A stretch of 64,000 nucleotides of DNA from an uncultured Armatimonadetes bacterium (GTDB lineage Bacteria > Armatimonadota > Hebobacteria > Hebobacterales > Hebobacteraceae), in the NCBI GenBank assembly GCA_963716175.1, contig OY970296.1, positions 1,504,001 through 1,568,000 on the forward strand, written 5' to 3'. The notes beneath the pieces were generated by a model. That model was not told where the DNA came from and made no database searches. It worked only from the letters and a program-made list of their open reading frames with translations. The translations under genes and the position numbers were made by a program. Positions 3,565 to 33,285 of the stretch are shown in pieces (position 1 is the first letter of the stretch; every line of letters begins with the position of its first letter).

Positions 3565-3566
3565 TC

Positions 3567-4994: not shown

Positions 4995-5183
4995 GGCGCC
5001 ACCCGCCCGGCCGCTCGAGCCGTCCAGCCCGTGTCGGCCGCCGCACCCGGGAATCTCCCTCCCCCACTTGCAGGAGGCGCCGCCGGCGTGGTAGACTGGA
5101 CTTGAGAGTGTCTCGTCACGTCGTCCTGCCTTTTGCCCGCCTACCCTGGACCGGGGTGGCGGGCTTGTCTTTCGGATTTCACA

Positions 5184-5703: not shown

Positions 5704-5712
5704 TGCTATAAT
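5704..5712 (+). promoter_or_regulatory. Extended -10 promoter element upstream of res
   Basis: TGcTATAAT, ~180 nt upstream of the res start. Confidence 0.5.
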
Positions 5713-5890
5713 GCCGCGGGCCGGGCGAGGACGGGGCATCTGGCCTCCGCGCTGAGTCACCGCGTCCTGTCTGCTCGCCAGCCCTGCAGGTCTCAGCCGT
5801 CTGGATGCACCAGGCCCGGGGCCGCCGGAAGGCGCCGGAGAGCAGTCAGGGGAGGCATATGGCGCAACGCCAGAGGAAGGGGGCGATTCT

Positions 5891-12414: not shown

Positions 12415-12419
12415 TAGAC

Positions 12420-14246: not shown

Positions 14247-14265
14247 GCTGGAAAGGCGGCTGGAG

Positions 14266-17200: not shown

Positions 17201-17979
17201 CGAGGCTAGAGAGCGATCTCAGAGCTTTGGGGCCGGCCGAACCGGCGCCTGTGGAAGCAACGGAGCACGAACTTGCCCAGGTCGAGCAGCTTGTGCGCGA
17301 CGGTCAGACGGTGCTCCGAGCGGCGAGCTCGCGTGCGGCAAGAGAAAGGCTGGCCGCCACCGATGCCCAGCTCCGCGCCTTAGCGGACGAGATGCACAAG
17401 AACGAGCGGGAGATCGAGAAGCTGAGAAAGTGGCAGGACGTCTTTGAACAGGCCACAAGCATCTTACGGCAGGAGGAAGCAAGGGTAGTAAGCCAAGGGC
17501 TTGAGCCAATCGGCCGCCTCATGCAGACGGTCCACCGAAGGCTCGCAAGGCATCCGATCTTCGATGAACTGAAGTGGGAGGTACGTGAGAAGGCAATCCA
17601 CTTCTGGGTGGAATCACGGACTGGCATCGTCAAAGGCCGGCGACTCGTACAAGCCTACACAAACGAGGCCTACCACAACATCGTGGCGCTCTCCGTGTTC
17701 CTCGCTTCCGCTCTATGTCGAGGCGGCAAACTCAGAGCGGTCGTGTTGGATGACCCCGTCCAAGCAATGGATGAGGTGAACATCTACGGTCTCCTGGACC
17801 TGCTCAGGCAGGTGTCGACGCTGAGTCAGGTCATCGTCACCACCGGCAGAAACGATCTTTTCCATCTCGCACGCGCGAAGTTTGCTTGCCTGAACGATGG
17901 TGGCGAGCAACGCTTCCACGCATATCGGCTGGGATGGGGAGGCCCTGGGGTTGGGACGACGGTGGAGGAGGTAACCTGA
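14266..17979 (+). CDS. SMC/Rad50-like ABC ATPase with N-terminal ABC-3C middle-component-like domain (LmuC-LmuB-like fusion)
   Basis: Walker A GENGTGKT, long coiled coils, CPLC zinc hook, Walker B/D-loop LDDPVQAMD; extra ~200-aa N-terminus with DAYLLFLV...IE...CLKEVV; start uncertain (ORF open from 14131). Confidence 0.75.
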   Translation: MRNAYSSSVLEALEETLVPRVPGMKRERNLRTELLDAVYSFWSGVIGVQVCETWDELRSRWEDSQHELGALMRTRRIARGWGNDAYLLFLVNQSALTSAGEQAVKLLRSIEISPFECLKEVVPLDATWRDELGALTFVPLQEEHPGVPDRASTAVRELLESLGVHPSLARDLTMFRPGVDAVVQALVEDRYGEPPGSVRVPEVTSVASARGVTERAVTPLPRTAARVRLKRLVLEHFRSFGTPSAPVELDLSGDLTLVYGENGTGKTCLAQAIEWAICGDVGSLSEAVRREGIGAGRVVRSMWAQGEKAAVRLELSKGGPLDCVESVGGARRFRGVSRKEEMLWRDLLGIGRRYKTERHELVRDRVRAGLMLLQRQMSHLLLVNSEERLGQFAALLGESTLARTTSKLTSTNRELGRQLEQRNESGAASRDRQRSLRDERSNMVAELSTGIAGIGSAPTLQEYLGRARDYHVAADISIPAGLARPQTDEAAEVAVRRVVEQLEERRASLVGALERTKRVGECSKQLASAKAQLAQAEEALVKARTDHRDAAARAAELQHALERLDQEIATLRSTHQERAERRRALERWFELEPLIRNRRERLAQVAHRIAASRQEVDRLDNEVNARSTALHSAQSSLDGASRGRDQAQGTVHRLEEIAGLLRRHGQPDAQRQRLEAGQRQATASARRCQEELARVVRQRDNAAAAVSSTELRLSQLRSRREDRDRLLQSLREHIDGDECPLCSHRYESRERLLAAIEHKIGSPSVDEQSLMSQLDRERTLVAECEQLVTECERGMVDAEHRKAEAADAADRAAELTNTFLTMLSAAGLSPGASLETVSDELERWQEFLGSAESKVSQLQLALTAEEQMLREVSDRRRAAWDEIGRLSGEERELTQQLDAAVAEVTSTLGALPQHDEELARELEQVRIEQQSSAKQLQQADSQRARIARDLENGRQTLQAYETSTRVAEQQAAERGSNVARLESDLRALGPAEPAPVEATEHELAQVEQLVRDGQTVLRAASSRAARERLAATDAQLRALADEMHKNEREIEKLRKWQDVFEQATSILRQEEARVVSQGLEPIGRLMQTVHRRLARHPIFDELKWEVREKAIHFWVESRTGIVKGRRLVQAYTNEAYHNIVALSVFLASALCRGGKLRAVVLDDPVQAMDEVNIYGLLDLLRQVSTLSQVIVTTGRNDLFHLARAKFACLNDGGEQRFHAYRLGWGGPGVGTTVEEVT

Positions 17980-18075
17980 CTCCTGACGCTGTCCCGGCCC
18001 GAGACTGGCGCTCGCGGGCATGCAAGGAAGGCGTAGACTAAGAGATTGCGTTGCGCCCCGGTGCCTGTGTTCCTG

Positions 18076-18234
18076 CTACCGCGCCAGCGACGCTTTGGGC
18101 TCGCGGCCACTTTGTAGCTGGCCCTCGTAGACCAGCACCATATCCCCCAGCAGCTTCGCCAGGCTCATCCCTGCGGTCTCGGCGACCTGGCGCATTCTGG
18201 CCGCCAACGCCCCCCGGATCGGCACCGTGAGCAT
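18076..18234 (-). CDS. Small ribbon-helix-helix-like protein
   Basis: MLTVPIRGALAARMRQVAETAGMSLAKLLGDM fits a strand-helix-helix pattern. Confidence 0.4.
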   Translation of the reverse strand: MLTVPIRGALAARMRQVAETAGMSLAKLLGDMVLVYEGQLQSGREPKASLAR

Positions 18235-18698
18235 CTCAGGGTGCACCCGAGGCCGCGAACGGCGGCGCACGCTGTCCCACACCAGGTGGCCCCGCGGAAT
18301 GAGCCCGTAGCAGGGGCTAGGACGGGCGATTGCCGCCGGGGGTGTCTCCACCCATCCCCCGCCCGGGGTGCCCCACGCACAGGCACACAGCCCCCCACAG
18401 CCCCTATTTGTGGGCGAGAGCCGCCTGCGCTAAGGCGGCCGGAAGCCGGTTTGTGGCGTTTCGGAACGAGAACGCGCACGGCCTTCTCCAGGGGCTCGCG
18501 TAACTGTAGGGCGGGCATGTCTCCGCATGCCCGCCGACCTTGGGCAGGAGGTAAGCTCCTGCCCAAGGAGAAAGCGCCTCGCCTCCTCCCAGCCTTCCCA
18601 GCGATGGGGAGGTCAGCATGCGGGCCCGCCGCTGGCGGGCCCGCATGCCAGGACCGCGCGCAGTGATGGCGAACTCACGGCGGCAGGGAGGCGATGAC

Positions 18699-19472: not shown

Positions 19473-19622
19473 CGGCGGAATCCGCAGATTGCGCAGATCG
19501 GCGCAGATCACGGCGGACACCGGGCGGTGTCCGCCGCTGGCTATTGTAGGGCGCGGTCTCCTGACCGCGCCTGGCGGCATCGGGAGATGCCGCCCTACAG
19601 CCAACGGCCGCAGGAGAAGAGA

Positions 19623-21776
19623 GTGCTCGACATCGTCATCTACACCGAGGGCCTGCCTTTCGATGGGGCGACGCCGTTCGAGCGGTCGCTGGGTGGGTCG
19701 GAGAGCGCGGTGGTGTTCATGAGCCGCGAGCTGGCGCGGCGGGGGCACCAGGTGCGCGTGTTCTGCCGGTGTGAGCGGCCCGGCGAGTACGATGGGGTGA
19801 GTTACCGCGACCTCGCGGACTTCCCCGAGTTCGTCGAGTCTGGCTCATGCGATGTGTTCATCTGCTGCCGGCATCTGCGGGGGCTGACCGCGCCGGTCAG
19901 GTCGAGGATCAATATCGTCTGGAACCACGACCTGATGGTGAAGCCGGCCGCGCAGTACCTGATGTCGCTGATGTTCAAGGTGGACCGGCTGTTCGTGCTC
20001 TCCGAGTTCCACAAGGCGCAGTTCATGCGGCACCTGGGGGTGCGCGAGGATCGGTATGTAGTGACGCGCAACGGGGTGGACCTGACGGTGGTGGATGAAG
20101 CTATCGCCGGGGTGGAGCGCGAGGCCGACCGGCTGCTCTACACCAGCCGCCCCGAGCGGGGCCTGGACGTGCTGCTGGAGCTGTGGCCCGATCTGAAGCG
20201 CCGGCGGCCGGCGCTCAAGCTGGCAGTCGCGCACTACGACAACCCGGGCGCGGATGCGCAGATGCGCGACTACCTGGAGACGCTGCGGCAGGTGGCGCGG
20301 CAGCTCCCCGATGTCGAGCTGCTGGGGGCGCTGAGCAAGCGCGAGCTCTACCGAGAGATCGCCCGCTCCGCCCTGGTGGTCTACCCGGCCGCCTTCCCCG
20401 AGGTGAGCTGCATCAGCGCGCTGGAGGCGGCGGCCTGCGGGACGCCGATGGTGGCATCGCGATACTGCGCGCTCAAGGAAAGCGTCGCCGATGGAGCGAC
20501 CGGGGTGCTGGTGCCCGGGGATCCGCGGAGCGCGGAATACGCGGAGGCCTTCGCCGCGGCGGTGACGGACTTGCTGGCCGACGAGGCGCGGTATCAAGCC
20601 ATGAACGCGGCGGCGCGGCGAAGGATCGAGGAGCGGTATCAGTGGAGGCAGATCGCGGAGGAGTGGGAGGGCATCTTCGAGGAGCTCCTGGGCGAGGAGG
20701 CGGCGGGCATGCCGAGACATGCCCGCCCTACAGAACGGATCGCAAACCCCGTTGGGCAGGAGCTTGCTCCTGCCACTCCGCGTCAGACTGTTTCCGTCTG
20801 CATGATCGTGAAGAACGCGCAGGGCACGCTCTACCGCTGCCTGGAGAGCGTGAAGCCAATCGCGGATGAGATCATCATCTGCGACACGGGTTCCACCGAT
20901 CACACCGGCGAGATCTCCCGTGAGTACACGGACCAGGTACATCAGATCCCCTGGGAAGACGACTTCGCCGCCGCGCGGAACCGGAGCATCGAGCAGGCGA
21001 GCGGGGATTGGATCCTGTGGTTGGATGCCGACGAGTACCTGCTCGGGGCCGAGCACCTGGGCAAGTACCTGCGGCCCAATATGTACAACGGCTATGTGAT
21101 CCGCCAGCATCACCACGCGGTGGATGCGCAGTTCAAGCCGGATGTGCCGGTGCGGCTGTTCCGGAATGGGCTGGGGGTGCGGTTCTTCGGCTGCGTGCAC
21201 GAGCACCCGGAGACCGAGCTGAACCTGGGCGTGGCGCCGGCGGTGATCCTGAGCGATGTGCAGATCGTGCACGACGGCTATGTGACGGAGGCGATCCGCA
21301 GACAGCGTTTCCTGCGCAACCTGCCGCTGCTGCTCAAGGATCGCGAGCGCCATCCCAATCGCCGGTTGGGATTGGTGTTCCTGGCGCGAGACTACATCCA
21401 CCTGGCGCGGTACGAGCTGGAGCGGACGCGCGGTCAGATGACGGAGAAGGCGCGAGGCTACCTGCAGCATGCCGTCGCCATTCACCGTCAGCGCTTCTCC
21501 TCTCCCGATGACCTGCTGTACTCGTACAGCTTCCCGCTCTACCAGTCGGCGCTGGAGCTGCTGGGGGAGGGGTTTGAGCTGCGGTACTTCCTCGACCTGG
21601 CCGCAGGCAACGAACGGCGGGTGGCAGGGGCAAGCCCCTGCCCAACGGAGCAGACGCGCCGGCGGTTCCTGGATGAGGCGGAGGCGCGGGAGTTCCTGGA
21701 GCGGCACCTCGGGGAGCTGCTCAAGGAGGCGGGGGGTGAGGAGGAGTTTCCGTTTGAGGAGGCGCGGTCGAGCTAG
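19623..21776 (+). CDS. Two-domain glycosyltransferase (GT4 + GT2)
   Basis: GGSESA, YTSRPERGL, EVSCISALEA (GT4); SVCMIVKN, DTGSTD, WEDDFAAARN, LDADE (GT2); GTG start with AGGAG RBS. Confidence 0.85.
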   Translation: MLDIVIYTEGLPFDGATPFERSLGGSESAVVFMSRELARRGHQVRVFCRCERPGEYDGVSYRDLADFPEFVESGSCDVFICCRHLRGLTAPVRSRINIVWNHDLMVKPAAQYLMSLMFKVDRLFVLSEFHKAQFMRHLGVREDRYVVTRNGVDLTVVDEAIAGVEREADRLLYTSRPERGLDVLLELWPDLKRRRPALKLAVAHYDNPGADAQMRDYLETLRQVARQLPDVELLGALSKRELYREIARSALVVYPAAFPEVSCISALEAAACGTPMVASRYCALKESVADGATGVLVPGDPRSAEYAEAFAAAVTDLLADEARYQAMNAAARRRIEERYQWRQIAEEWEGIFEELLGEEAAGMPRHARPTERIANPVGQELAPATPRQTVSVCMIVKNAQGTLYRCLESVKPIADEIIICDTGSTDHTGEISREYTDQVHQIPWEDDFAAARNRSIEQASGDWILWLDADEYLLGAEHLGKYLRPNMYNGYVIRQHHHAVDAQFKPDVPVRLFRNGLGVRFFGCVHEHPETELNLGVAPAVILSDVQIVHDGYVTEAIRRQRFLRNLPLLLKDRERHPNRRLGLVFLARDYIHLARYELERTRGQMTEKARGYLQHAVAIHRQRFSSPDDLLYSYSFPLYQSALELLGEGFELRYFLDLAAGNERRVAGASPCPTEQTRRRFLDEAEAREFLERHLGELLKEAGGEEEFPFEEARSS

Positions 21777-21806
21777 GCGGCGGGCATAGATATGCCCGCC
21801 CTACAG
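21777..21806. repeat. REP family A (GGCGGGCAT-n-ATGCCCGCCCTACA; GTAG-ended)
   Basis: Copies at about 18505, 20701, 21777, 22611, 25151, 47103, 49581 and 52185. Confidence 0.85.
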
Positions 21807-21823
21807 CGGCTTGGGAGATAGCA

Positions 21824-22516
21824 ATGCCATATTGCACACCGGATGACGTCCGCCTGCGGGCGGTGGGGATGACCGAGGAGGTGATCCCCGATGTTTCTTC
21901 CAGCAGCTTGAACCTGACCACCTGCATCGCCGAGGCGGAGGCGGAGGTGGAGGAGGCGGGCCGGGCGGGCGACTACGAGGTGCCCTTCGATCCGGCGCCG
22001 GATCGCATCCGGGATCTGACCGCGGCCGGAGCGCTGGCGCGGGCGCGCCGCGGCCTTCAGCTCGGGAACCAAGCGGCGGAAGAGCCCGACCCCTATTGGC
22101 AGGAGTTCGAGGCGGGATTGGGGCTGCTGCGGGAGGGGCAGCTCGACCTGGGGACAGTGGTGGTGAGCGGTGAGGCGGTGGTGATGCCAGCTGAGGAAGG
22201 TGAGTGGGCGCAGCTCAGCCACCGAGGCCTGCTCACCGCAAGTGTCACGGTCACCAATGAGTCGGGCGACTTCACCTATGTCGAGGACCGGAGCGAGTAC
22301 GAGCCGGGCTACCGGCCCGATGCGGTGAAGGACTATCAGGTGGATCATCGCGAGGGGCGGCTGCTGCGGTTGCTGGGAGGACGGATCGGCGCTAGCCAGG
22401 CGGTCAAGGCGAGCTACGAGTACTATCGCCGGCAGCCGAAGCGGGCCGAGGATGCCGAGTATGAAGGCCGGACGGCGAGCGCGGACCGGGTGGTGAGGCG
22501 GGATCAACAGGAGTAA
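21824..22516 (+). CDS. Phage head-tail adaptor (Mu gp36/DUF1320-like) with extra C-terminal domain
   Basis: MPYCTPDDV...IAEAEAEV...YEVPFDPAP...LLREGQLDL; C-terminal DYQVDHREGRLLRL..GRI. Confidence 0.6.
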   Translation: MPYCTPDDVRLRAVGMTEEVIPDVSSSSLNLTTCIAEAEAEVEEAGRAGDYEVPFDPAPDRIRDLTAAGALARARRGLQLGNQAAEEPDPYWQEFEAGLGLLREGQLDLGTVVVSGEAVVMPAEEGEWAQLSHRGLLTASVTVTNESGDFTYVEDRSEYEPGYRPDAVKDYQVDHREGRLLRLLGGRIGASQAVKASYEYYRRQPKRAEDAEYEGRTASADRVVRRDQQE

Positions 22517-22650
22517 TGTGGCAAGGGCTTGCCCAACGAGTTTATCGGGAGCCCGAAGAGGGGGTCGCCCCGTGGACTGGTTGCGAACCTGCCCTAACCA
22601 AGTGACGGCCGGCGGGCATAGGCATGCCCGCCCTACAAGCGAGGTGGCTC

Positions 22651-23103
22651 ATGGCGCATCCGGAGTCAACGCGATTTGTTCCAATCCGGGAGGCGGTGTG
22701 TGAGGTGCTGGCCGCGGCGCCGGCGCTGGAGGAGGTGAAGGCGGTGGTGCGCGACCGGGAGGCCTGGGCGCGGCTGCCGGCGACGCAGTACCCGGCGATC
22801 GGGGTGTTCTTCGCCGATCCGGTCGGGGTGGAGCGAGCGCGGTGGGTGAGCAATCGGCGGGATCACAGCTACCAGCTCGAGGTGCAAGTGGCCGTGCGGT
22901 CGCTGGAGAGCGCGCAGGCGAGCGAGGATCTGCTGTTCGGCTACCTGGAGGCGGTTGAGGATGCCTTGCGCGTGGCGCCGACGCTGGGGGGATTGGTGCG
23001 GTTCATGGGAGTCGGCCTGGTGCGGCGCGCCCGCGCCAGAGTGGAGTCGTACTGGCATTCGCAGGCGGCGCTGCTGGTGACGTGCGAGCAGCGAACGGGA
23101 TAG
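22651..23103 (+). CDS. Putative tail terminator protein
   Basis: ~150 aa, YPAIGV...EAVEDALR..PTLGG, directly before the tube gene. Confidence 0.55.
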   Translation: MAHPESTRFVPIREAVCEVLAAAPALEEVKAVVRDREAWARLPATQYPAIGVFFADPVGVERARWVSNRRDHSYQLEVQVAVRSLESAQASEDLLFGYLEAVEDALRVAPTLGGLVRFMGVGLVRRARARVESYWHSQAALLVTCEQRTG

Positions 23104-23141
23104 GGGCGGGATGAATCCCGCCCCTACGCGAGGAGGTCATC

Positions 23142-24107
23142 ATGTCTGGCCGCATGGGGCAACTGGGGGCAGTGGGGATGGCGCTGGAGTCTACCTGGGG
23201 TTTGCCCGCGAGCGCGACGACTTATCTGGAGGTGACGCACGCTGATATCAGGCCTGTGATCGGATACGAGATCCCCAACGCGGTGCGCGGCACCCGCGCC
23301 CGTCGGCGCATTCAGGGAGGGCCGATGCTGTGCTCCGGGCCGCTCACCTTCGATGTCTGCGCGGGCGCCATGGGGGAGGTGCTGAAGGCTGCGTTCGGGA
23401 CGGTCACGACTACCCTGGTGGCCTCCAGCGGCGCGGGCGCGGTCTATCAGCATACCTTCACCCGCTGCGACACCACCTTCCTGCCCTCGCTCACTGTGGA
23501 GCAGAATCTGGGCGGCTTGACCAGCCGGAGGGTGGCCGGAACGCGGGTGAACCAGCTCACGCTCTCGCTCGCCCCGGGGCGCACTCTGATGGCGGATGTT
23601 GACTGCCGGGGCCGGGAAGAGGCCCTGGTGACTCCCACCAGCGCGAGTTACACCGCAGATCAGCCGCTGCACTACAACGGCTTCACCGCCAGCATTGACG
23701 GCCAGCCGAGCCTGGAGATCGAGGAGTTCCTGGTGCGGGTCAACAACGGGCTGGTGGACGGGATCTGGAGCGCGGGAGCGGCCGGGAAGCTGAGCAAGCT
23801 GCCCGCGGGCGCTTTCGCGGTCGGTGGCAGGTTCTCCCTCGCGTTCGAGTCCACGGCCGCGCACCAGGCCTTCACCGCGGGCACGCCCACCGGGCTGCGC
23901 TTCAAGCTTGCCGGGGCCACGGTGGTTGGCACCTGGGGCTACGGCCTGGAGATCGAGCTGCCGCAGGTGCGCTACTTCTCGGCGGACGCGCCGCTGGCGC
24001 CGGGGCGATTGGTGTACGACATCGCGTTCGAGGCCTTGCTGGATAGCAGCCAGCAGCCGCCGCTGGACGCGCGGTGCTGGCTCTGGAATACGAAGTCGGG
24101 GTATTGA
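23142..24107 (+). CDS. Phage tail tube (major tail) protein
   Basis: GMALESTWG, YQHTFT, PSLTVEQ, LEIELP; beta-rich tube pattern, strong GAGGAGG RBS. Confidence 0.75.
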   Translation: MSGRMGQLGAVGMALESTWGLPASATTYLEVTHADIRPVIGYEIPNAVRGTRARRRIQGGPMLCSGPLTFDVCAGAMGEVLKAAFGTVTTTLVASSGAGAVYQHTFTRCDTTFLPSLTVEQNLGGLTSRRVAGTRVNQLTLSLAPGRTLMADVDCRGREEALVTPTSASYTADQPLHYNGFTASIDGQPSLEIEEFLVRVNNGLVDGIWSAGAAGKLSKLPAGAFAVGGRFSLAFESTAAHQAFTAGTPTGLRFKLAGATVVGTWGYGLEIELPQVRYFSADAPLAPGRLVYDIAFEALLDSSQQPPLDARCWLWNTKSGY

Positions 24108-24215
24108 GTGGAGCGGCGGGCATGCGTTCTCTGCCTGAGGTGGATAACGGGGCAGGAGCAAGCTCCTGCCGAACAGGTCTTGCGATATGCTCTAGCGGCC
24201 GATGAGGGGTAAGCG

Positions 24216-24917
24216 ATGGATAGCGAACGAGTTGACTTGAGCCAACTGGGGATCTGGGGCACGGCGTTGCGGGTAGAGCTGGGCCGTCGCCATGAAGAGG
24301 TGTGGGTGCAGACGCTGGGGGACCGGACGGAGGCGCTGGAGCGGGGGCACGAGGCGATGCAGCAGAAGCTGCTGGAGTTCCGGCCCGGGGGCGAGCGGCT
24401 GGAGGCCTTGACCCAAGCGCTGATGATCGCCCCGGCGGCGGACCTGGTGGAGCTGGTGCTGGAAGGGGAGCGCTCCCAGATGGCGGCGCGGCTGGCCCGC
24501 GAGCTGCCGGACCCGGTGAGGCCGCGGCAAGATCGCGCGGCTGTCGAGAGCAATGAGGATTTCGTGCGGCGGGTGCAGGAGCATCAGCAGCGGTGCCGAG
24601 AGCTGGCCGAGCAGAGGGCGCAGCGACTGGCCGAGGTGATCGAGGCGCGGCGGGCCGAGCTGGCAGCGATGGAGCGGAAGGAGCTGGTGGAGCTGGCGCG
24701 GCCCCGCCGGGTGGATGTGGAGTGCTGGAATGCCTTCGCCCGCGCCTGCGATGATTGGGTGCTGCTGCGGGCAGTGCGGCGCAGCGAGGACCACGATCAG
24801 AGCTACTTCGACAGTGTGGCCCAGGTGCAGGCCCTTCATCCCGCGGTGAAGGAGCAACTGCGGCAGGCCTACCGGGAGCTGGAGCCGCCGCAGGGGGAGG
24901 CGCTCCCAAAAGTCTGA
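24216..24917 (+). CDS. Tail assembly chaperone (gpG-like)
   Basis: Lies between tube and tape measure; ends at a slippery heptamer. Confidence 0.6.
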   Translation: MDSERVDLSQLGIWGTALRVELGRRHEEVWVQTLGDRTEALERGHEAMQQKLLEFRPGGERLEALTQALMIAPAADLVELVLEGERSQMAARLARELPDPVRPRQDRAAVESNEDFVRRVQEHQQRCRELAEQRAQRLAEVIEARRAELAAMERKELVELARPRRVDVECWNAFARACDDWVLLRAVRRSEDHDQSYFDSVAQVQALHPAVKEQLRQAYRELEPPQGEALPKV

Positions 24918-25057
24918 GCGGCCATCCCGGGTTCCGACTGAACGAGTTGATCTGCCGGCGCTATCCTGGCGCCTATCGGCATCCGCTTGACCCCGCGCTG
25001 CTGGAGCTGCCGTGGTGGCTGAAGGAAGCGATCGCCTTGCTGGCAGCGGAGGGGTGA
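24905..25057 (+). CDS. -1 frameshift extension (gpGT-like) of the tail chaperone
   Basis: C CCA AAA heptamer at 24905-24911, just before the stop; the -1 frame stays open 50 codons (PKSLSGHPGFRL...LELPWWLKEAIALLAAEG). Confidence 0.65.
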   Translation, partial: PKSLSGHPGFRLNELICRRYPGAYRHPLDPALLELPWWLKEAIALLAAEG

Positions 25058-25190
25058 AGCGGGGCTATCCGCAGATGGCTAGGCAGGCCTCGCCTGCCGC
25101 CATGGCGGCCGCCTCCTGGCGGCTTAGCCATTACGCAGATTAGCCGGATTCGGCGGGCATGGGCATGCCCGCCCTACAGGAGCGGCACGA

Positions 25191-25970
25191 ATGGCCGGGT
25201 CGGACGATGAGATGACGGCGATGCAGCCGCTGATCGGATACGGTTCCCTGGGGGAGGCGGCGGATACCATGCTGGCCGCCTCCCGCACGATGCTGGCGGC
25301 GGCCTCTGCCATCTCCTCCGGCGTCGGGGGCGGTGACGCGCGGGCGAGGGAGCTGACTGCGGAGGCGATCGAGTCAGGCTTCCTGCGCGCGCTGCGGCGG
25401 GAGAGCCTGCTGGCCGGCACGGGGACAACGGCCGCGCCCACCGCGGGGGTTGGGCTGCCGGCCGGGGGGGGCGTGGCCGGCACCGGCTATGGCCGCATGG
25501 GGGCCAGCATCACGGGCCAGGGCGCGCGCTCTCAGCTCTACGGGAGCATCGGCGGGGCGATCGGGTACGCGGTGGGAGGGCCGGTGGGCGCCTTGCTGGG
25601 CGGGATGCTGGGAGGTCTGATCGGGGACCAGGGTGAGGGTGAGGCGGCGCAGGCGCGGCAGGAGGCAGAGCTGCGCCGGCAGTGGCTCAACACTCCCGAG
25701 GGCTTCGAGATCCAGGCCTACCTCTACAGTCTGAGCCAGGGGCTTTATGGGGGCAGCGCGCTGGCCTGGCTGATGGCGCAGAGACAGGAAGCGCCGGCGG
25801 GGAGCGCTGGGCGCTTCGCACCGGTGATCGTGAACTTCCCGCCGGGCGCGGTGCAGATCGTGGGCCAGGATGCGGAGGCGGGGGCGCGGGCCGCGCGCGC
25901 TTTCGCAGGTGAGCTGGGGCGAGTGCTGCGGCTGAACAGCGTGGTAGTGCCTGCGGCCGGCGAAATCTGA
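25191..25970 (+). CDS. Very short tape-measure-like protein
   Basis: Ala/Gly-rich, with glycine zipper GGAIGYAVGGPVGALLGGMLGGLIG and C-terminal VIVNF..GAVQI; synteny. Confidence 0.55.
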   Translation: MAGSDDEMTAMQPLIGYGSLGEAADTMLAASRTMLAAASAISSGVGGGDARARELTAEAIESGFLRALRRESLLAGTGTTAAPTAGVGLPAGGGVAGTGYGRMGASITGQGARSQLYGSIGGAIGYAVGGPVGALLGGMLGGLIGDQGEGEAAQARQEAELRRQWLNTPEGFEIQAYLYSLSQGLYGGSALAWLMAQRQEAPAGSAGRFAPVIVNFPPGAVQIVGQDAEAGARAARAFAGELGRVLRLNSVVVPAAGEI

Positions 25971-26029
25971 GCCGAGAGGCAGCGTGTTTTCGAGAGCCCT
26001 GGGTTGGCCGAATGCCGCGCTGCTGCCCT

Positions 26030-26140
26030 GCTGAGCCCTTCGGCTCTGCTCAGGGTAAACTCCGCGAAGCATCACGCCGTGAGCAGGACCGGAACGGCGG
26101 GATTCTTCCCCTTCGGTGCGCTCAGGGTCAGAATGACATC
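26030..26140. repeat. Repeat family E (CCCTTCGGCTnnGCTCAGG..GACA)
   Basis: Copies at about 26030-26140, 55322 and 61335. Confidence 0.65.
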
Positions 26141-26209
26141 AGTGGCCGCCGCAGTCCTGGCGGTCACACCCTCCTCTTTCGCCGCGCGCTAATGGAGAGA
26201 CGATAACCG

Positions 26210-28960
26210 ATGGCCACTTCTCCCATGCGAGGGACGCATTTCCAATGGTTCCAGGATGATGCGCCGCCGGCGAGCAACTCGCCGCTGCGCGGGGAAGACA
26301 GCAATCTCCCGGCGGTGGACCCGGGTGCTCATTGCCTGCTCCGCGTGCAGTCCCAGCACACCGGCGACCACTGCTTCTCCGTGTCCCGGCAGCTCCAGTA
26401 CCGGCGGGTCGGCAGCAACCAATGGTGGCCGGTGGGCGCCTTCACGGTGCCGCCATACGATGCGCCTATCTTCCATCCCAGCACCTGGTTCACCGATGGG
26501 GCGAGCATCGCCACCCAGCGCCTCTCGCTACCCACGGGCGCGAACAGCGGCAACTTCGCCGGTGGGCAGGCGAAGCAGAGCGATGTGGAGACCGATCCCC
26601 AGGTCTACGACGCGCAGGATTTCACGGAGGAGCTCTGGTCGCTGGCAGTCCACCAGCAGGCGCCGCCGGGGCTGGACCTGGAGTTCCGGGTCACCAGGTC
26701 CGGCCAGCCCTATGAGCGCTACCAGCGCTATCCGCGACTCACGGTGGAGGGCTATCAGCCCAGCGAGATGGATGTGAAGGCGAATCAGCTCTTCGCCGAC
26801 AGCGTGCCGCTGGCGGAACTCGAATATCGCCGCGACAACACCTGGTGGGACCTGTCCGACCGGCTGCTCTTTCCCTTCACCATCACTCGCCGCCTGCGGG
26901 CGGTGACCACGGCAGATCTCACCCTGGACAATGCGGACGGGATGCTGGCCCGCGATAACCTGGTGAGCAGTTGGAACTACGATGTGAGCAGCCATTGTGA
27001 TCCCCTGCTGGACGAAGGCCGGGTGATCCGGCTGCGGCAAGGGGTGGAGCTGCATCCTAACCTCGCCTATGGGCTGAGCTATGCCTGCAGCCCCGCGCCC
27101 ACCAGACCCAGCTCCCTGCGGGGGACCGAGCTGACAGATGGCGGCTTCGGCCAGCCTGGCAATGAGCACGATGACGCCTGGGTGGGTTGGCAAGGCGCGG
27201 CGGCGACGGTGACCTTCAGCCTGGCCCCGGCGCGGGACGTCCATTCGGTGGCGGTGAGCCTGCTGAGCCGGGCGGCGGCCGGGGTGCTGCTGCCGAGTTC
27301 GGCCTCGGTGACGCTGATCGGGAGCGCAGGCAGCTACACCGCGCCGCTGGAACTGGGGCATCTGCGAGACGATCCCGCGGGCCGGCGTCACTATCTGCAC
27401 GGCCTCGATCTACACCAGCGGGCGGTGTGCCGGGTGGTGTTGAGCTTCTGCCCGCAGTCGCCGCAGGCCTGGGTGTGCCTGGATGAGGTTGCCCTCTACG
27501 ACGCCTCCACCACCGTGGATTGGCTGAAGACCACTTTCACCGGCATCCTGGGCGACGAGATCACGCAGCAGGCGACGGATGGCTCATCGGTGGAGCTGGC
27601 CCAGGTCCGTGATATGAGCAAGCTGCTGGCCGATCTGTTCATCGAGGTGTTCGACCACTACGAGGAGCAGTCGGTCGAGGCGATCGTGGCGGACCTGCTG
27701 GCCAACCCCGAGTACGAGGCGGCGTTGGCGAGCGAAGACCTGGCGCTGGACACTACCGGTTTCGTGCTGCCGAAGTGGACGGAGCAGAACGTCAACTTGC
27801 TGGACGCCTGCGCGGAACTGGCGAAGATGATCGGCTGGACCTTCGAGGCGGATGAGGATGGTGTCTACACCTTCCACGACCTGGAGTGGACGGTCCAGAC
27901 CGGAGAAGAGACCTACCTGGCGGGCCGCGATCTGCTGGGCTGGGCGCCGTCGGTCTCCGGCCTCAACCTGCGCAACCGCATCAGCGTGAAGAGTCGGGAC
28001 GCGCGCAACCACGACATCTCCGTCACCGTGGCGGACGAGGAGAGCATTGCCCGCTATGGGCCGCGGTTGTTCACGGTGTTCGAGCCTACGATGCGGACGG
28101 CGCGGCTGGCGCGGCAGTTGGCGAACGCCATCCGGCGCGACTATAGCTGGGTGCAGCCCATGGGCTCCGGGGTGGTGATCGGCGATGTGTTCATGCGGCC
28201 GGGGCGGGTGGTGAGCGTGGTGCACAGCGGCTCCACCCATTCCGGGCCGGAGCGGCTCTACCGGGTGGAGGCGGTGACGCACCGCCAGACCGGACACCGG
28301 CACGGGGCTCACACTATGACCCTGGAGCTGCGCGGCTATCGTCACCGCCTCCCTACCGCACCGGACAGCCTGGTGGCCCACCCCATGGACAGCGCAGTCT
28401 CGCTGGACTGGGCCCCGCAACCGGAGGAACCGGCCATTGCCGGCTATCGCGTGTTCCAGGCCGCGACGGTGACCGGGACTTACACCCAGGCGGCGAGTGT
28501 GGCCGCGCCGCCGGCCTGGGTGGGCAGCCTGACCAACGCGCAGACTTACTGGTTCAAGGCCGCTGGCTACACCACCGGGGAGGTGCTGGGTGAGTTCGCG
28601 GGCCCGGTCCCGTGCGCGCCCCAGAGCGGGGGGCTGCCCACACAGGCGGAGGCGGCCTGGCAGCCGCAGAGCTTAACCGCGGAACTGGCGCCGATCTGGG
28701 GGATCGCCCGGCCTCTGCTCACCTGGTATCCGCGGATCCCGGCGCCCGAGGACACCTGCTACCACATCTACCGCTCACAAGTGAGCACCGGCCCCTTCGC
28801 CCTCGTCGCCACACGAACGCAGCCCGGATCGCAGCCGGTGACGTGGGTTGACTACGTGGGGCCATACCTGTCGGGCCATGTCTACTATGAGGTCACGTTC
28901 TATGCGCCCGGCAGCGATTTCGAGAGCTGGCCCAGCTCGATGGCGAGCGTGAGCCTGTAG
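26210..28960 (+). CDS. Large tail tip/baseplate hub protein with carbohydrate-binding-like insert and FN3 domains
   Basis: ADLTLDNADG; DEESIARYGPR hub motif; ELTDG..WVGW insert; two C-terminal FN3-like repeats (VSLDW..GYRVF; LTW..YHIYRS). Confidence 0.65.
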   Translation: MATSPMRGTHFQWFQDDAPPASNSPLRGEDSNLPAVDPGAHCLLRVQSQHTGDHCFSVSRQLQYRRVGSNQWWPVGAFTVPPYDAPIFHPSTWFTDGASIATQRLSLPTGANSGNFAGGQAKQSDVETDPQVYDAQDFTEELWSLAVHQQAPPGLDLEFRVTRSGQPYERYQRYPRLTVEGYQPSEMDVKANQLFADSVPLAELEYRRDNTWWDLSDRLLFPFTITRRLRAVTTADLTLDNADGMLARDNLVSSWNYDVSSHCDPLLDEGRVIRLRQGVELHPNLAYGLSYACSPAPTRPSSLRGTELTDGGFGQPGNEHDDAWVGWQGAAATVTFSLAPARDVHSVAVSLLSRAAAGVLLPSSASVTLIGSAGSYTAPLELGHLRDDPAGRRHYLHGLDLHQRAVCRVVLSFCPQSPQAWVCLDEVALYDASTTVDWLKTTFTGILGDEITQQATDGSSVELAQVRDMSKLLADLFIEVFDHYEEQSVEAIVADLLANPEYEAALASEDLALDTTGFVLPKWTEQNVNLLDACAELAKMIGWTFEADEDGVYTFHDLEWTVQTGEETYLAGRDLLGWAPSVSGLNLRNRISVKSRDARNHDISVTVADEESIARYGPRLFTVFEPTMRTARLARQLANAIRRDYSWVQPMGSGVVIGDVFMRPGRVVSVVHSGSTHSGPERLYRVEAVTHRQTGHRHGAHTMTLELRGYRHRLPTAPDSLVAHPMDSAVSLDWAPQPEEPAIAGYRVFQAATVTGTYTQAASVAAPPAWVGSLTNAQTYWFKAAGYTTGEVLGEFAGPVPCAPQSGGLPTQAEAAWQPQSLTAELAPIWGIARPLLTWYPRIPAPEDTCYHIYRSQVSTGPFALVATRTQPGSQPVTWVDYVGPYLSGHVYYEVTFYAPGSDFESWPSSMASVSL

Positions 28961-29052
28961 GGGAACGGCCTGTCCGCAGATTGCGCAGATGGATGCAGAA
29001 CGGCAGGGCGCCTGCGGCGCCCTGCCCTATCGCGCTTGGGAACGGGACAATC

Positions 29053-30681
29053 ATGACTCCAGACTTGCGTCCGGCGCTGCGGCCGGATCTCTTCGGGCAA
29101 TTGGCGGCGACCGATCCCTATCAGCGCCGGGCGCGGCGGCTGTTCGAGCGCGGGCAGGTGATCGCGGTCTACGGCAACGAGGCCGACCTGCGGGTGGGCC
29201 TGGATGCGCGGGGCAATGCGCTCGCCCTGAAGCGAGTGCCGATCGTGTCCGGCTACGTGCCCCAGGTCGGGGATTGGGTGGCGATCCAGTATGAAGCCGG
29301 CCACTCCGGGGCGCCCTGGGTCACCGGGCCCAGCATGGCCGATGATGCCTGCGCCGACCCGGCCGGGATCGGGGTGTTCTCGGTCTCGGCCTCCGCGCCC
29401 AGCACCCCGGCGAAGAGCACGATCTACTTCGACGATAGCCTCGCCGCCTGGCGGGGTTGGGACGGCTCGGCCTGGGTGGACTTCTTCGCCAAGCTGCACA
29501 ACACGCTGCCCGATCTGCAAGGCGGGGCCGGCGGCCAGTACTATCACTTCAGCGCGGCCGAGCACGACGGTCTGCAGGATTTCTGCGATGGCAGCGCGCT
29601 GGCCTCGGGCTGGCTGAAACAACTGAAGTTCAAGGCGATTGACGCCAGCGCCACCAGCCGGACCCGGCTGTTCGAGAAGGACGGGGATTTCTTCTGGGCG
29701 ATCAATGCCGAGTACGATCCCGCCCTCGACCAATGGAACCGCGTCGACACCGCCAAGTACGCTTACCTGGTCGGCCTCTACTCGAAGAACGGCATCCCCC
29801 ATGAGCCGGGGGGCTTGGGCGGGGTGGCCTGGTGGCGGTGCGTGGACGGGGCCAACCCCATCGGGGATTACACCGCGGTCGGGGGTTGGGAACTCGGGTT
29901 CATGATGACTATGCACCGCAATTTCGTGGGCGGTGGCATGAACTGGGAGCTGGACGGCTCGGGCTCGCCGCCCTATGGGCGCTTCTCCCAGTCCGGCCAC
30001 GAGGACCCGGACTGCTTCACCGGGCTGATGCGCAACATCTGGTACGAGGGCAACCCCACGCTGACGCCGGGGGCAGGCTCGTGGGGCCGGGATACCACCG
30101 ACCACGATGGTTACTTCACGGGGATAGTGGACGGAGTCGGCTTCATCTGGCGGCGCAAAGCGGCCGGAGCGGGGTCGTTTCCTACCAGCGCCTGGTCTGA
30201 GGTGGCGCGGCTGACGGCGGCCGGGGTGCTCAGCATCGCCGGAGCCAGCATGAGCTTCGCTGGCAACGCCCTGGCGGTGGAGGCGGCGAGCGCCATCAAC
30301 CAGGACTTGACCTCGGACGCGGCGCCGACTTTCGCCGGCCTATATACAAGTGGGACTATCCGGCCGACAGTAGGCGCTTCGCCGAACCTTGGGGCAAGCA
30401 GCGTGGAGTTCACCGTTGCCTACTACGGGCGCTGGGCCACTGGGGTCGCTGCCTCCTACTTGGATCACTCTGGCATTCTGTACTTCCGTGATCCGGAGGC
30501 CTCGTTTGTTACCCGCGGTACCTACAACAGTGCCACGGGCAACTTCTACATGAGCGGTCAAGGCCGGTTCGGGTCGCTGCGGATAGACCAGGCGCCGGCC
30601 GCAGGGACCATCACCCCGGACAAGACGATCACGATTAGCTGCAACGGCGTGGACTACAAGATCGCAGTGAAGGCGGCATGA
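29053..30681 (+). CDS. Tail spike/fibre with N-terminal gpV-like OB fold
   Basis: GQVIAV...VPIVSGYVPQVGDWVAI N-terminus; HNTLPDLQGG..YYH and NQDLTSDAAPTFAGL fibre motifs. Confidence 0.6.
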   Translation: MTPDLRPALRPDLFGQLAATDPYQRRARRLFERGQVIAVYGNEADLRVGLDARGNALALKRVPIVSGYVPQVGDWVAIQYEAGHSGAPWVTGPSMADDACADPAGIGVFSVSASAPSTPAKSTIYFDDSLAAWRGWDGSAWVDFFAKLHNTLPDLQGGAGGQYYHFSAAEHDGLQDFCDGSALASGWLKQLKFKAIDASATSRTRLFEKDGDFFWAINAEYDPALDQWNRVDTAKYAYLVGLYSKNGIPHEPGGLGGVAWWRCVDGANPIGDYTAVGGWELGFMMTMHRNFVGGGMNWELDGSGSPPYGRFSQSGHEDPDCFTGLMRNIWYEGNPTLTPGAGSWGRDTTDHDGYFTGIVDGVGFIWRRKAAGAGSFPTSAWSEVARLTAAGVLSIAGASMSFAGNALAVEAASAINQDLTSDAAPTFAGLYTSGTIRPTVGASPNLGASSVEFTVAYYGRWATGVAASYLDHSGILYFRDPEASFVTRGTYNSATGNFYMSGQGRFGSLRIDQAPAAGTITPDKTITISCNGVDYKIAVKAA

Positions 30682-30682
30682 G

Positions 30683-30898
30683 ATGGCAATCACCGAAGCC
30701 CAGCGCGCCTGGGCCAGCAACCGCGTCACCGCGCTGTCCGAGCTGGACGCGAAGCTGCGTGCCGGGATGGCCCACCTGAGTGACCTGCTCGGCATGGGCG
30801 ACCGGCCCTACGTCACCATTGACGCGGCCCAGGTCCAGCAGTTGTGGGCCGCCTACCGGCAGGCGATCGCAGATGCGGCCAACGCTCTGCCCGGCTAG
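30683..30898 (+). CDS. Small hypothetical protein (possible fibre chaperone)
   Basis: Directly follows the fibre gene; host-like codon usage. Confidence 0.5.
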   Translation: MAITEAQRAWASNRVTALSELDAKLRAGMAHLSDLLGMGDRPYVTIDAAQVQQLWAAYRQAIADAANALPG

Positions 30899-30915
30899 GC
30901 CGCAAGGAGCGGAGC

Positions 30916-31167
30916 ATGACGACAGAGGGCCCCAAGTCGGAGACGACGATCACGGATGATGAGCTGCAGGTCATGGCCAGGGAACGATTCCAGGGCCGGG
31001 TGGAACGGGTACTGGCGGTGATGCGGGAGGAGCGCATTGACTGGAGGGGGATTGCGTTCATCGCCCCGGACGGCCGGATTGGGGTGCGAGTGATGCCAGT
31101 GGACCTGTCCGCCGGTTTGCCCGCCGGCCTGGCGGCGGGCCGTGTGGCGGAGATGGGACAGCCATGA
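30916..31167 (+). CDS. Small hypothetical protein
   Basis: AAGGAG RBS; ATGA overlap with the next gene. Confidence 0.55.
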   Translation: MTTEGPKSETTITDDELQVMARERFQGRVERVLAVMREERIDWRGIAFIAPDGRIGVRVMPVDLSAGLPAGLAAGRVAEMGQP

Positions 31168-31532
31168 TGGGCACGGCCTTGGATGCTCTCAATGTGCTGA
31201 AGGAGTACGGCCTCGCCGGGGTGCTGGCCTGGCTTTTCTGGTGGACCTTGCGGCGGATGATGGCCTCCCACGATGCCACCGTGCGGAGTCTGAAGGAGCA
31301 GATCGGGGACCACCTGGAGGCGGCGCGCGTGGTGGGAGAGAGCTTCTCGGAGGTGGTGCAGAACCACCTCAGCCATGCCACCGAGGTGCTGGCGCGCCTG
31401 GACGGCTCGCTGAGCCGGTATGTGGAGGAGCAGCGGCCCTGGCAGGACCGCCTGGTCTCCACTCTGGTCAAGATCGAGTCCCATCTGGCGTCAGGAGGCA
31501 AAGGCGATGGTGCGCGGCCAGGAGTGGGTTGA
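31164..31532 (+). CDS. Putative holin (single N-terminal TM plus coiled coil, BhlA-like)
   Basis: EYGLAGVLAWLFWW TM segment; immediately upstream of the endolysin. Confidence 0.55.
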   Translation: MMGTALDALNVLKEYGLAGVLAWLFWWTLRRMMASHDATVRSLKEQIGDHLEAARVVGESFSEVVQNHLSHATEVLARLDGSLSRYVEEQRPWQDRLVSTLVKIESHLASGGKGDGARPGVG

Positions 31533-32181
31533 GCAGACCTTCGGGCGCTTCGGGTGGCAGGAGGATGCCGGCCAACGGGGCGCGATCAAGATCCTGGGTG
31601 ACTGGGAGCGCCAGAACATCGTGTCTCTGGCGCCGCCGTTCGCGCTGCGCGACGGCCGCGGCCGGCCCATTTCTGCGATCAGATGTCACCGGCTGGCGGC
31701 GCCGGCCTTGCAGCGGGCGCTGGCCGACCTGGCGGAGCGCAGCCTGGGCCACCTGATCAACACCTTCGATGGGTGCTTCGAGGCCCGGCATCAGCAGTGG
31801 AACCCAAAGCATTCCCTGTCGCGACACAGTTGGGGGATCGCGGTGGATGTCAACGCGCGCCTGTTCCCGTATGGCTCGAAAGCGCGCCAGGACGAGCGGC
31901 TGATTGCGGCCTTCGCGCGCCAGGGGTTCACCTGGGGCGGCGATTGGCGCGAGCCGGACCCGATGCACTTCGAGATCGTGGACCTGGCGCAGCCGGCGCG
32001 GTTGCTCGACATCCTGGTGGACGGAGAGAAGGTGAGCGTGGGATTCCTGCATGAGGGCCGGGCGGTGGCGCCGGTGAGAGAGGTTGCCGAGGCGCTGGGT
32101 GCGCGGGTCGAGGCGCGGCTGGAGACCGGGGAGATCGAGATCCACTCGCCTCCGGCGAGTGCATACCCTCTTGGGAGGTGA
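31507..32181 (+). CDS. M15-family peptidase endolysin with C-terminal stalk (copper amine oxidase N-like) domain
   Basis: R...SRHSWGIAVDVN, WGGDW, DPMHFE; AVAPVREVAEALGARV. Confidence 0.85.
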   Translation: MVRGQEWVEQTFGRFGWQEDAGQRGAIKILGDWERQNIVSLAPPFALRDGRGRPISAIRCHRLAAPALQRALADLAERSLGHLINTFDGCFEARHQQWNPKHSLSRHSWGIAVDVNARLFPYGSKARQDERLIAAFARQGFTWGGDWREPDPMHFEIVDLAQPARLLDILVDGEKVSVGFLHEGRAVAPVREVAEALGARVEARLETGEIEIHSPPASAYPLGR

Positions 32182-32187
32182 ACTGCG

Positions 32188-32391
32188 ATGAAGTTGCTGC
32201 GGATGCTGGGATACGCGTGGCGGCTGTTCTGGTTTCTGGAGCTGCTGATCACCCCGAGCGCGGCCGCCGAGGCCTTGCTGAACCAGGCGCGGGTGAAGGC
32301 CTGGCTGGAGAAGCAGCCGCTGGATGATCAGCGCAAGATTCGGGAGGCCGCGCCGCTGGTGGTGGGGGCGATATTGGCGGCGCTGGAGTGA
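32188..32391 (+). CDS. Small hydrophobic protein ending the lysis cassette
   Basis: GGAGG RBS; hydrophobic N- and C-termini. Confidence 0.55.
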   Translation: MKLLRMLGYAWRLFWFLELLITPSAAAEALLNQARVKAWLEKQPLDDQRKIREAAPLVVGAILAALE

Positions 32392-32517: not shown

Positions 32518-33285
32518 CTATAGGTAGCCTCCCAGCCGATGCATCTGCGGGATCACGCGGACTTCTGGCAGGTGCCGCTTTGCCACCGCCTGCAAGCACA
32601 ACATCTGCCTGGGCGTGGGGGCCTGCATCTGTGGTCTTGTCGGCGTTACCGGCTGAAGCACCAGGGCCGCCTCTGGATTCACGCTCGCGATTAGCGAGGC
32701 CGCGTGTTCCACTTCCTCCGGTTCGCAGTCGGCGGTCACCACGCATTTGCAGAAGTCGAGTCGGCTGGGGTCTTCATGGGCGGCGAGTGCGAAGAGGAAG
32801 CGCTCGTGCTGCTCCCACTGGGAAGCTTGCCTGGTTGCTGAGGGTAGCTTGATATCGGCGCAGATGAAGTCGAGGTGCGCGATGATCTCCACCAGCTCCT
32901 CGGCCAGGGTGCCATTGGTCTCCAGGTAAGCCTTCAGTCCCAGGTCGCCGAGCAGTGGGAGGAGTTCGGTGAGGAACTCCGCGTGCAGCAACGGCTCGCC
33001 GCCGGTGAGGGCGACGGAGTGATGAAGTCCTGGCTGGGGGCGGACCAGACCGCGAATGGCGTCGGCGATGTCGGTGCAGGAGAGGGGGTTGGGGATTTTG
33101 TCGAAGTCACTACTGCCCGCGGCCCGCTCCACGCGGCAGGTGGCCGGCGCGACCTGCGCGCCCGGCGTGTCGCAATAGGCGCAGCAGAGGTTGCATCCGG
33201 CGAAGCGCAGGAAGACCTGCCGCTCGCCGACCAGCAGCCCCTCGCCCTGGATGGAGGAGAAGATTTCGACGACGGGGGCGGTCAT
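32518..33285 (-). CDS. queE: 7-carboxy-7-deazaguanine synthase (radical SAM)
   Basis: EIFSSIQGEG, FLRFAGCNLCCAYCDT, LTGGEP, LETNG, PQMH. Confidence 0.85.
   Translation of the reverse strand: MTAPVVEIFSSIQGEGLLVGERQVFLRFAGCNLCCAYCDTPGAQVAPATCRVERAAGSSDFDKIPNPLSCTDIADAIRGLVRPQPGLHHSVALTGGEPLLHAEFLTELLPLLGDLGLKAYLETNGTLAEELVEIIAHLDFICADIKLPSATRQASQWEQHERFLFALAAHEDPSRLDFCKCVVTADCEPEEVEHAASLIASVNPEAALVLQPVTPTRPQMQAPTPRQMLCLQAVAKRHLPEVRVIPQMHRLGGYL

Follow-up and report, generated by a model that had tools for sequence, protein, structure and literature searches.

The run of phage-tail genes studied here, which a first-pass annotation had headlined as a capsid-less tailocin, makes up the distal two thirds of a single phage-derived element that is ancient, fixed in the chromosome and approximately 18–19 kb long, and the same element carries large terminase (TerL), portal, scaffold and capsid genes. 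The window, i.e. the whole 64-kb stretch of DNA analysed, corresponds to positions 1504001–1568000 of the single 4.56-Mb contig (C1) of the source genome, G000. The gene order of the element is a small terminase (TerS)-like helix-turn-helix (HTH) protein, TerL, SPP1-type portal, DUF1232 protein, scaffold, SU10-type capsid, in some genomes an amidohydrolase, and a fused GT4-GT2 glycosyltransferase, followed by adaptor, terminator, tube, G/GT chaperone, short tape-measure-like protein, hub, fibre, small proteins, holin-like proteins and M15 endolysin. Head and tail genes almost certainly constitute a single element, and this element is very probably maintained by selection. As judged from sequence, it is probably a vertically inherited, domesticated virion cluster resembling gene transfer agents (GTAs), which agrees with the second option of the first-pass annotation ('GTA-like, sometimes split across loci'), while the narrower claim that it packages and transfers host DNA has about even chances. 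The genomes directly display the gene content, contiguity, position, purifying selection, frameshift site and island junctions described below.

The tail genes form an unbroken plus-strand run at window 19587–32391 in siphophage tail order, and here the gene list of the first-pass annotation stands (Table 1). As it had also proposed, the block is host-like in composition, with a GC content of 0.679 as compared with 0.662 for the whole genome and 0.640 for the island that precedes it. Its statement that capsid, portal and large terminase genes are lacking was true inside the window only. When the rest of the genome was searched by family, as the annotation had suggested, a Terminase_6N match was found at G000 1476075–1476719, 28 kb before the window start, and the complete set of head genes was located on the plus strand at G000 1475477–1480947, approximately 42 kb upstream of the tail genes, across the island. 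The PF04860 portal and PF03354 TerL families gave no match in the G000 genome, the element using other families instead.

The separation of the two halves in G000 is due to an insertion of 41 589 bp inside the 3′ end of the capsid gene. A 7-bp core, CGGAACG, is present at both junctions (G000 1480873–79 and 1522462–68, the latter being window 18462–68). In six relatives the capsid protein ends in ...ELRNENA[H/R]G plus five residues and a stop, while the G000 reading frame runs to ...ELRN and then into 22 unrelated, island-encoded residues, with the displaced native end lying at the opposite junction. The recombinases near the G000 element belong to the inserted island; in the element itself scans found no integrase, repressor, replication gene or sheath, as previously annotated. 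An assembly join that removed the head genes, named beforehand as a possible refutation, is not present, G000 being a single contig. The 'capsid-less' look of the tail block therefore results from the island insertion and the window edge, and not from biology. Likewise, the adaptor, whose retention had been called atypical, is expected, since the element includes head genes; the glycosyltransferase does not lead the element, as had been supposed, but is conserved in its interior, between capsid and adaptor; and the amidohydrolase, taken for a host flank, is a variable gene between capsid and glycosyltransferase.

To describe the distribution of the element we refer to relatives as G001–G017, most of which are incomplete metagenome-assembled genomes, and to genera by similar codes (g6, g11). 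Capsid and glycosyltransferase/tail genes lie on one contig in six relatives (G002, G003, G004, G009, G011 and G015), and G008 carries the genes from TerS to capsid and amidohydrolase as far as the contig end. In G002 (contig C190) a MerR-type gene is followed by the whole element, from TerS at 7970 to the 67-aa protein gene (g67) at 26188 (18 219 bp), and then by queE, paaK and DUF366 genes. These are the genes that flank the two halves in G000, so that queE, unlike the amidohydrolase, was correctly named as a host flank. No integrase, repressor or replication genes were found between the G002 flanks, or among the G000 element genes in Pfam and PHROG scans. The amidohydrolase is present between capsid and glycosyltransferase in G000, G004, G008 and G011 and missing there in G002, G003, G009 and G015. 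The glycosyltransferase itself is found between capsid and adaptor with 57–75% identity in all eight relatives in which that stretch is present, being truncated in G001. A MerR-family gene lies divergently beside TerS in G001, G002 and G004, is separated from it by a TIR-TPR gene in G000, and was not beside TerS in G011; it is only a lead for host regulation of the element. Counting G000, the portal is present in 13 of the order's 16 genomes and in 11 of its 12 genera, the tube in 11 of the 14 other family genomes, and the capsid in 10 of these 14, one of which (G010) showed only a weak 27% match.

We estimated selection as NG86 medians of the ratio of nonsynonymous to synonymous substitution (dN/dS), dropping matches with <80% query coverage or <40% identity and leaving out G010, G015 and G017; no row passed for the fibre or the 83-aa protein gene (g83), and the 71-aa protein gene (g71) had no match. 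The ratios, which are rough because dS is near saturation (proportion of synonymous differences, pS, 0.41–0.62), were 0.12 for the portal, 0.21 for the capsid, 0.27 for TerL and 0.46 for TerS in the head, and 0.14 for the adaptor, 0.19 for the hub, 0.20 for both tube and glycosyltransferase and 0.29 for the tape-measure-like protein in the tail, as compared with 0.13 for paaK, 0.13 for MerR, 0.16 for DUF366 and 0.17 for queE in the flanks. Mean dN was 0.083 for the portal and 0.121 for the capsid, both under that of every flank (0.158–0.207). Family-wide identity was 81–88% for both portal and capsid versus 78–84% for a 405-aa RpoB fragment, the frameshifted G011 rows of the latter set aside. 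In quick maximum-likelihood trees, G008 and G012 were sisters (support 100 for capsid, 99 for RpoB), G000 grouped with genus g6 in both trees, and same-genus pairs were sisters; G005 paired with G011 in the capsid tree (92) and with G000 in the RpoB tree (91), G000 being in the same capsid clade. The closest phages among 50 697 records shared at most 27% identity in the portal and at most 29% in the tube. The synteny and dN/dS check that had been suggested bears out the claim of long residence and domestication: the cluster keeps its neighbours in several genera, its dN/dS lies far under 1, and the frameshift site is preserved, although the element was not found in genus g11. Taken together, distribution, conservation, dN/dS, frameshift, trees and distance from phages point to a single ancient acquisition that was passed on vertically, with selection acting on the particle as a whole.

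The frameshift site is the slippery heptamer C CCA AAA at 24905–24911, in frame and two codons ahead of the chaperone stop, at which a −1 slip opens a conserved extension. The heptamer is kept in nine of nine genomes, an order-level relative included, and the extension in eight relatives measures 48–69 aa and carries the motif ICRRYPG..H..D....LPWWLKEAI. The tail is of the non-contractile type, with a PF18906 tube and no sheath family match among the cluster proteins (Pfam and PHROGs). The 916-aa protein is, on its predicted fold, a gpJ/Tal-type hub: an AlphaFold (AF2) model built from 43 sequences (pLDDT 79.2) matched in Foldseek the lambda tail tip (8k35_A, 2.3e-19), those of T1, T5 and Chi, the monocin tip 9j1k_L and gp27/VgrG hubs, and within the protein a YQBQ-like domain matched weakly (7.9e-05), short of the Pfam cut-off. 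The 230-aa protein, which has 66 homologue clusters, is likely, if not firmly, an adaptor. In its model (pLDDT 71.5) the helical N-domain weakly resembled the Mu gp36 neck (9khx_A, E 0.03) and 5ydn (TMt 0.73), searches against a viral structure library returned 'head-to-tail adaptor' and 'Mu Gp36' rows (E 0.01–0.05), and the C-domain weakly matched Ig-like tail domains; among PHROGs the protein matched phrog_807 (Ig-like, 4e-06), and Foldseek against the PDB gave nothing at E≤0.001. When profiles of the hub and of the 230-aa protein were run against PDB sequences, they matched FN3 only, or nothing.

The chaperone, fibre and tape-measure-like protein had no family match in Pfam or PHROG scans, and a Pfam scan yielded no match for the 71-aa, 83-aa, 122-aa and 67-aa proteins. 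The first ~390–420 residues of the fibre (from query residue ~25) are conserved and its C-terminus is variable; its atlas look-alikes all scored <0.9, among them a weak lead, Mtd_N (0.83). No segment of the holin-like proteins reached the cut-off of 1.6 in a Kyte–Doolittle scan with an 18-residue window, so that the 'holin' label rests on position and on reading of the sequence.

Particle production, DNA packaging, transfer and a role for the glycosyltransferase could then be envisaged as follows. The operon would be switched on by the host in a few cells, TerS and TerL would fill heads through the portal, and short flexible tails, built independently, would join them via the adaptor and terminator. 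At about 1.5 Å per residue, the tail would perhaps be ~40 nm long if the 259-aa protein is the ruler. The glycosyltransferase may modify the particle or a cell-surface receptor, and the holin and M15 peptidase would release particles that carry host DNA to kin, as in a GTA. In G000, the 41.6-kb island, integrated by a large serine recombinase, sits in the last 12 capsid codons and parts the head from the tail genes. An 18-kb head–tail–lysis cluster without replication or integration genes, at one locus and order-wide, fits published descriptions of GTAs (PMC11841831, PMC10883770, PMC9662315, PMC12946183).

Several observations weigh against the GTA-like reading. In genus g11 (three genomes, 92–96% complete) no tube, hub or portal match was found, and the matches in G010 were limited to TerL at 46% and a capsid-like one at 27%. 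In G001 the element lies in three places, with TerS to scaffold beside MerR, the glycosyltransferase (from residue 121) to the hub (residues 1–235) at 2.82 Mb, and the hub (residues 19–916) to g67 beside queE at 1.95 Mb, and its capsid was not found with the query used. Some genes of G011 and G015 are interrupted by frameshifts or stops, which may be assembly errors or decay, an assembly error being likely for G011 since its RpoB is also broken. In G000 the conserved last 12 capsid residues are replaced by 22 others, and this copy may thus not make heads. TerS, called by HTH domain and position only, is the least conserved gene (41–60% identity), the near-saturated dS blunts the selection estimates, and both trees are short, single-gene and partly resolved, with three open forks each. 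The pieces in G001, the absence from g11, the interrupted genes in G011 and G015 and the altered capsid end in G000 would also be expected of a functionless prophage remnant slowly decaying at one site. However, approximately 18 genes have stayed open across at least nine genera, with dN/dS of 0.12–0.46 like the flanks, the slippery site has persisted in every genome compared and portal and capsid are as conserved as the RpoB fragment, which makes such a remnant very unlikely. A live temperate phage or satellite integrating at one site in many hosts would account for the full structural and lysis set and the TerS-like gene. This is the least probable explanation of all, as the G002 flanks enclose only 18.2 kb, in which integrase, repressor and replication genes were not found, the branching of the capsid tree agrees with host genera, no phage record exceeds 29% identity, and the nearby recombinases in G000 are those of the island.

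The function of the particle is a separate matter, and sequence does not tell a role in transfer from one in killing or lysis. The element's own lysis genes and TerS would also fit a PBSX-like defective-phage killer, in which complete particles released by lysis serve to kill or lyse competitors or in altruistic lysis. The holin-like proteins and endolysin agree with this, as does the variable fibre C-terminus, which recalls determinants of killing spectrum, and PBSX is itself described as a GTA-like element packaging 13.4-kb chromosomal pieces (PMC12946183). However, no sheath or contractile parts were found, and constraint is strongest on portal, TerL and capsid, fitting a need for DNA-filled heads; we consider a killer unlikely. 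Headless, non-contractile F-type tailocins, i.e. tails acting alone as bacteriocins, are highly improbable. The window by itself holds only tail and lysis genes, the hub fold matches a monocin tip, and, the G000 capsid gene being altered and 41.6 kb distant, tails might in principle be made on their own, but the element also includes the head and packaging genes, capsid and tail share a contig in six relatives, the head genes are under the strongest constraint and the adaptor-like gene is kept. For the GTA-like cluster a bolder version can be formulated, in which an independently domesticated, order-wide GTA with its own glycosyltransferase, in a lineage with none described, is gated by the island, such that only excision restores the capsid end and rejoins the head and tail operons. 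We regard this regulatory switch as a long shot.

Table 1. Features of the element, the island and the flanks (window positions unless marked G000; aa, amino acids)
Feature	Position	Strand	Remarks
TerS-like HTH protein in small-terminase position	head block, first gene	+	HTH domain and position
TerL	head block	+	PF03237/PF17289; phrog_2 3.3e-37
SPP1-type portal	head block	+	PF05133 1.9e-23; phrog_64 5.5e-33
DUF1232 (YkvA-like) protein	G000 1478644–1478988	+	hydrophobic segment; between portal and scaffold
Scaffold-like protein	head block	+	phrog_172
SU10-type major capsid protein	head block	+	PF17236 2.5e-69; phrog_1328 4.6e-65
Large serine recombinase	G000 1480897–1482366	−	directly after capsid gene, at island end
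Island, right-hand 18.5 kb	1–18468	.	left end G000 1480880, outside window
Displaced native capsid 3′ end	18462–18503	+	codes for RNENAHGLLQGLA and stop; just before amidohydrolase
Amidohydrolase PF04909	18618–19472	+	variable internal gene between capsid and glycosyltransferase
Fused GT4-GT2 glycosyltransferase	19587–21776	+	PF00534 2.1e-21; PF00535 4.6e-19
230-aa head–tail adaptor-like protein	21824–22516	+	helical N-domain and beta C-domain; weak fold matches
Tail terminator	22624–23103	+	phrog_4204 2.9e-06; 63–78% identity in relatives
Non-contractile-type tail tube	23142–24107	+	PF18906 6.8e-25; phrog_290 1e-33
G-like tail assembly chaperone	24216–24917	+	position; 52–71% identity in relatives
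−1 programmed frameshift, slippery heptamer and extension (GT-like product)	24905–25057	+	conserved
259-aa Gly/Ala-rich protein in tape-measure position	25191–25970	+	position only; 45–63% identity in relatives
Spacer with dispersed host repeat	25971–26209	.	inner ORF 26012–26206, probably spurious
916-aa baseplate hub/tail tip (gpJ/Tal-like)	26210–28960	+	two C-terminal FN3-like domains
Fibre/receptor-binding candidate	29053–30681	+	open from 28981; conservation starts at 29053
71-aa protein (g71)	30683–30898	+	no match in relatives' loci searched
83-aa small protein (g83)	30916–31167	+	59–69% identity in four relatives; 70% in G001
122-aa holin-like protein	31164–31532	+	hydrophobic N-terminal segment judged by eye
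Endolysin, M15_4 peptidase	31507–32181	+	PF13539 9.6e-16; weak Cu_amine_oxidN1-like C-terminal domain
67-aa protein (g67)	32188–32391	+	hydrophobic ends; final gene of element
queE-like radical SAM gene	32518–33285	−	conserved host flank; then paaK-like and DUF366 genes

Host palindromes had been reported in most spacers of the tail block, which is borne out in part. The palindrome GGCGGGCA-N-TGCCCGCC occurs in 84 copies in the G000 genome, and the window has spacer copies at 18510, 21779, 22611 and 25152, i.e. in four spacers, with a variant at 23104 between terminator and tube; the spacer between tape-measure-like protein and hub holds a different dispersed repeat, with nine partial copies elsewhere in G000. 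A further copy of the palindrome (20702–20735) is part of the glycosyltransferase reading frame, where it falls in the linker that joins the GT4 half to the GT2 half. The patterns searched were found neither in the island, as had been reported, nor in the head block. A search for sequencing runs containing the stretch turned up no RNA run, and in four DNA metagenome runs only short Logan contigs were available on it. Near-identical pieces of the tail block were present, window 14000–17900 (island) had next to no cover, no contig crossed an island junction, and many contig joints or loose ends coincided with repeats.

The island is a mosaic mobile/defence island. Its window part encodes GmrSD (53–1684) and a DnaB-like helicase, and further left it carries a PLD nuclease, an S24 peptidase, a tyrosine integrase and IS21 istA/istB; no virion gene was found among the open reading frames (ORFs) scanned. 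Window 5891–17979 additionally encodes a type III restriction enzyme (ResIII and endonuclease), an N6/N4 methylase, a 1282-aa SMC/AAA_23/AAA_13 ATPase and two unannotated ORFs. A PF05065 capsid gene at G000 3219193–3220449 was considered as the missing head gene and rejected, as it lies in a separate small island (G000 3216900–3224183) with a large serine recombinase, the HK97-type capsid (PF05065, 2.9e-33), unannotated ORFs and a DNA methylase. Among ten ORFs scanned there, no portal or terminase match was found, and this island may be a satellite-like or remnant element.

Beside the head genes, the DUF1232 protein was kept in all head modules seen (67–81% identity) and is unusual for a position between portal and scaffold. 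Just upstream of TerS, and between it and the MerR-type gene in G000 only, lies a gene for an 832-aa TIR-STAND-TPR protein (G000 1472619–1475117; PF13676 1.3e-34, many TPR matches), which has no match in the relatives' loci. A 2026 report describes control of GTA release by a CARD-NLR-like immune system in Caulobacter (PMC13236601), and the placement beside TerS may be worth a look or may be chance. In G010 (g11), a different head–tail cluster at C16:4132–18041 encodes a 774-aa glycosyltransferase with 40% identity, again between head and tail; the glycosyltransferase thus seems to be part of the virion module of this phage lineage. This TerL-to-glycosyltransferase cluster and a tube/TerL pair in G017 were listed as ORFs only. 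In the rpoB gene of G000 (1160063–1161623) the domain match is split over two frames near 1160410, with 348 and 508 aa open as compared with ~1270 aa in relatives. This is either an assembly indel error or a real frameshift, and it bears on how far single-base errors affect ORF calls in G000.

If the GTA-like reading is true, the element would represent a new, siphovirus-like origin of GTA-like elements, kept in almost the entire order, whose uncultured members come from wetland and sediment samples, and a testable case of gene exchange in uncultured bacteria. Few GTAs are known, most of them in Alphaproteobacteria (PMC12946183). Literature searches made without the taxon name turned up neither a GTA nor a tailocin described for this lineage, which only weakly suggests that none has been published. 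The presence of a conserved glycosyltransferase inside the element makes one ask whether the particles, or else their receptors, are glycosylated. The island in the capsid gene illustrates that a 64-kb window can make a whole-virion element look headless, and G000 offers a natural experiment in which an intervening mobile element may be either tolerated by such a cluster or in control of it.

Intervening elements of this kind are known from Bacillus subtilis, in which skin in sigK and SPbeta in spsM move via large serine recombinases. As in those cases, the island is a large element with a large serine recombinase at one end, it interrupts a coding sequence whose displaced end is intact at the far junction, and the junctions share a short core. 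In contrast to them, the capsid reading frame remains open and now ends in 22 new residues, the gene that was hit is that of a domesticated phage and not a sporulation gene, excision is only proposed, and no directionality factor was identified. No Spo0A_C domain match was found in the G000 genome. As regards the glycosyltransferase, the mycobacteriophages Che8, Corndog and Myrna encode glycosyltransferases and have glycosylated capsid and tail tube proteins (Freeman et al. 2023, as cited in PMC12363180); here too the enzyme is encoded by the phage-derived element itself, but it is a GT4-GT2 fusion between capsid and adaptor, and the host envelope is a possible target.

With F-pyocins and monocins the element shares a non-contractile tube, chaperone frameshift, tape measure, hub, fibre, lysis cassette and the monocin-tip hub fold. 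F-type tailocins are headless and lack packaging genes, consisting of tail and lysis genes only, whereas TerS, TerL, portal, scaffold and capsid are present here. An intact temperate prophage would be expected to hold integrase, repressor and replication genes and att repeats; no integrase, repressor or replication gene was found within the element, and the recombinases near its G000 copy are those of the inserted island. PBSX has its own lysis genes and is contractile, and like PBSX and the FpGTA of Faecalibacterium the element is a domesticated particle cluster outside Alphaproteobacteria. It differs from both in being siphovirus-like and 18.2 kb long with no sheath match, and of a PBSX-type contractile tail, with its sheath and baseplate genes, the scans showed nothing beyond the weak YQBQ-like match inside the hub; FpGTA is podovirus-like and 10.5 kb long (PMC12946183).

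The clusters of the RcGTA type (Rhodogtaviriformidae) in Alphaproteobacteria are described as compact chromosomal head–tail sets without integrase, repressor or replication genes, vertically inherited throughout a host clade, under purifying selection and with a short tail, and the present element resembles them in all these respects: scans of G002 and G000 revealed a structural cluster free of integration, lysogeny-control and replication genes, and portal spread, flanks, dN/dS and trees point to vertical inheritance under purifying selection. Some GTAs occupy several loci, as the element does in one relative (G001). The RcGTA portal is PF04860, its capsid is PF05065 and its lysis genes lie outside its main cluster. 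The element has a PF05133 portal and a PF17236 capsid instead, and no sequence kinship with RcGTA was seen, the only PF05065 capsid in G000 being that of the unrelated island at 3.22 Mb; it also differs in having its own lysis genes, a scaffold in place of a protease, and a glycosyltransferase. Being built from gene families other than those of RcGTA, and neither contractile like PBSX nor podovirus-like like FpGTA, the element would have been domesticated independently.

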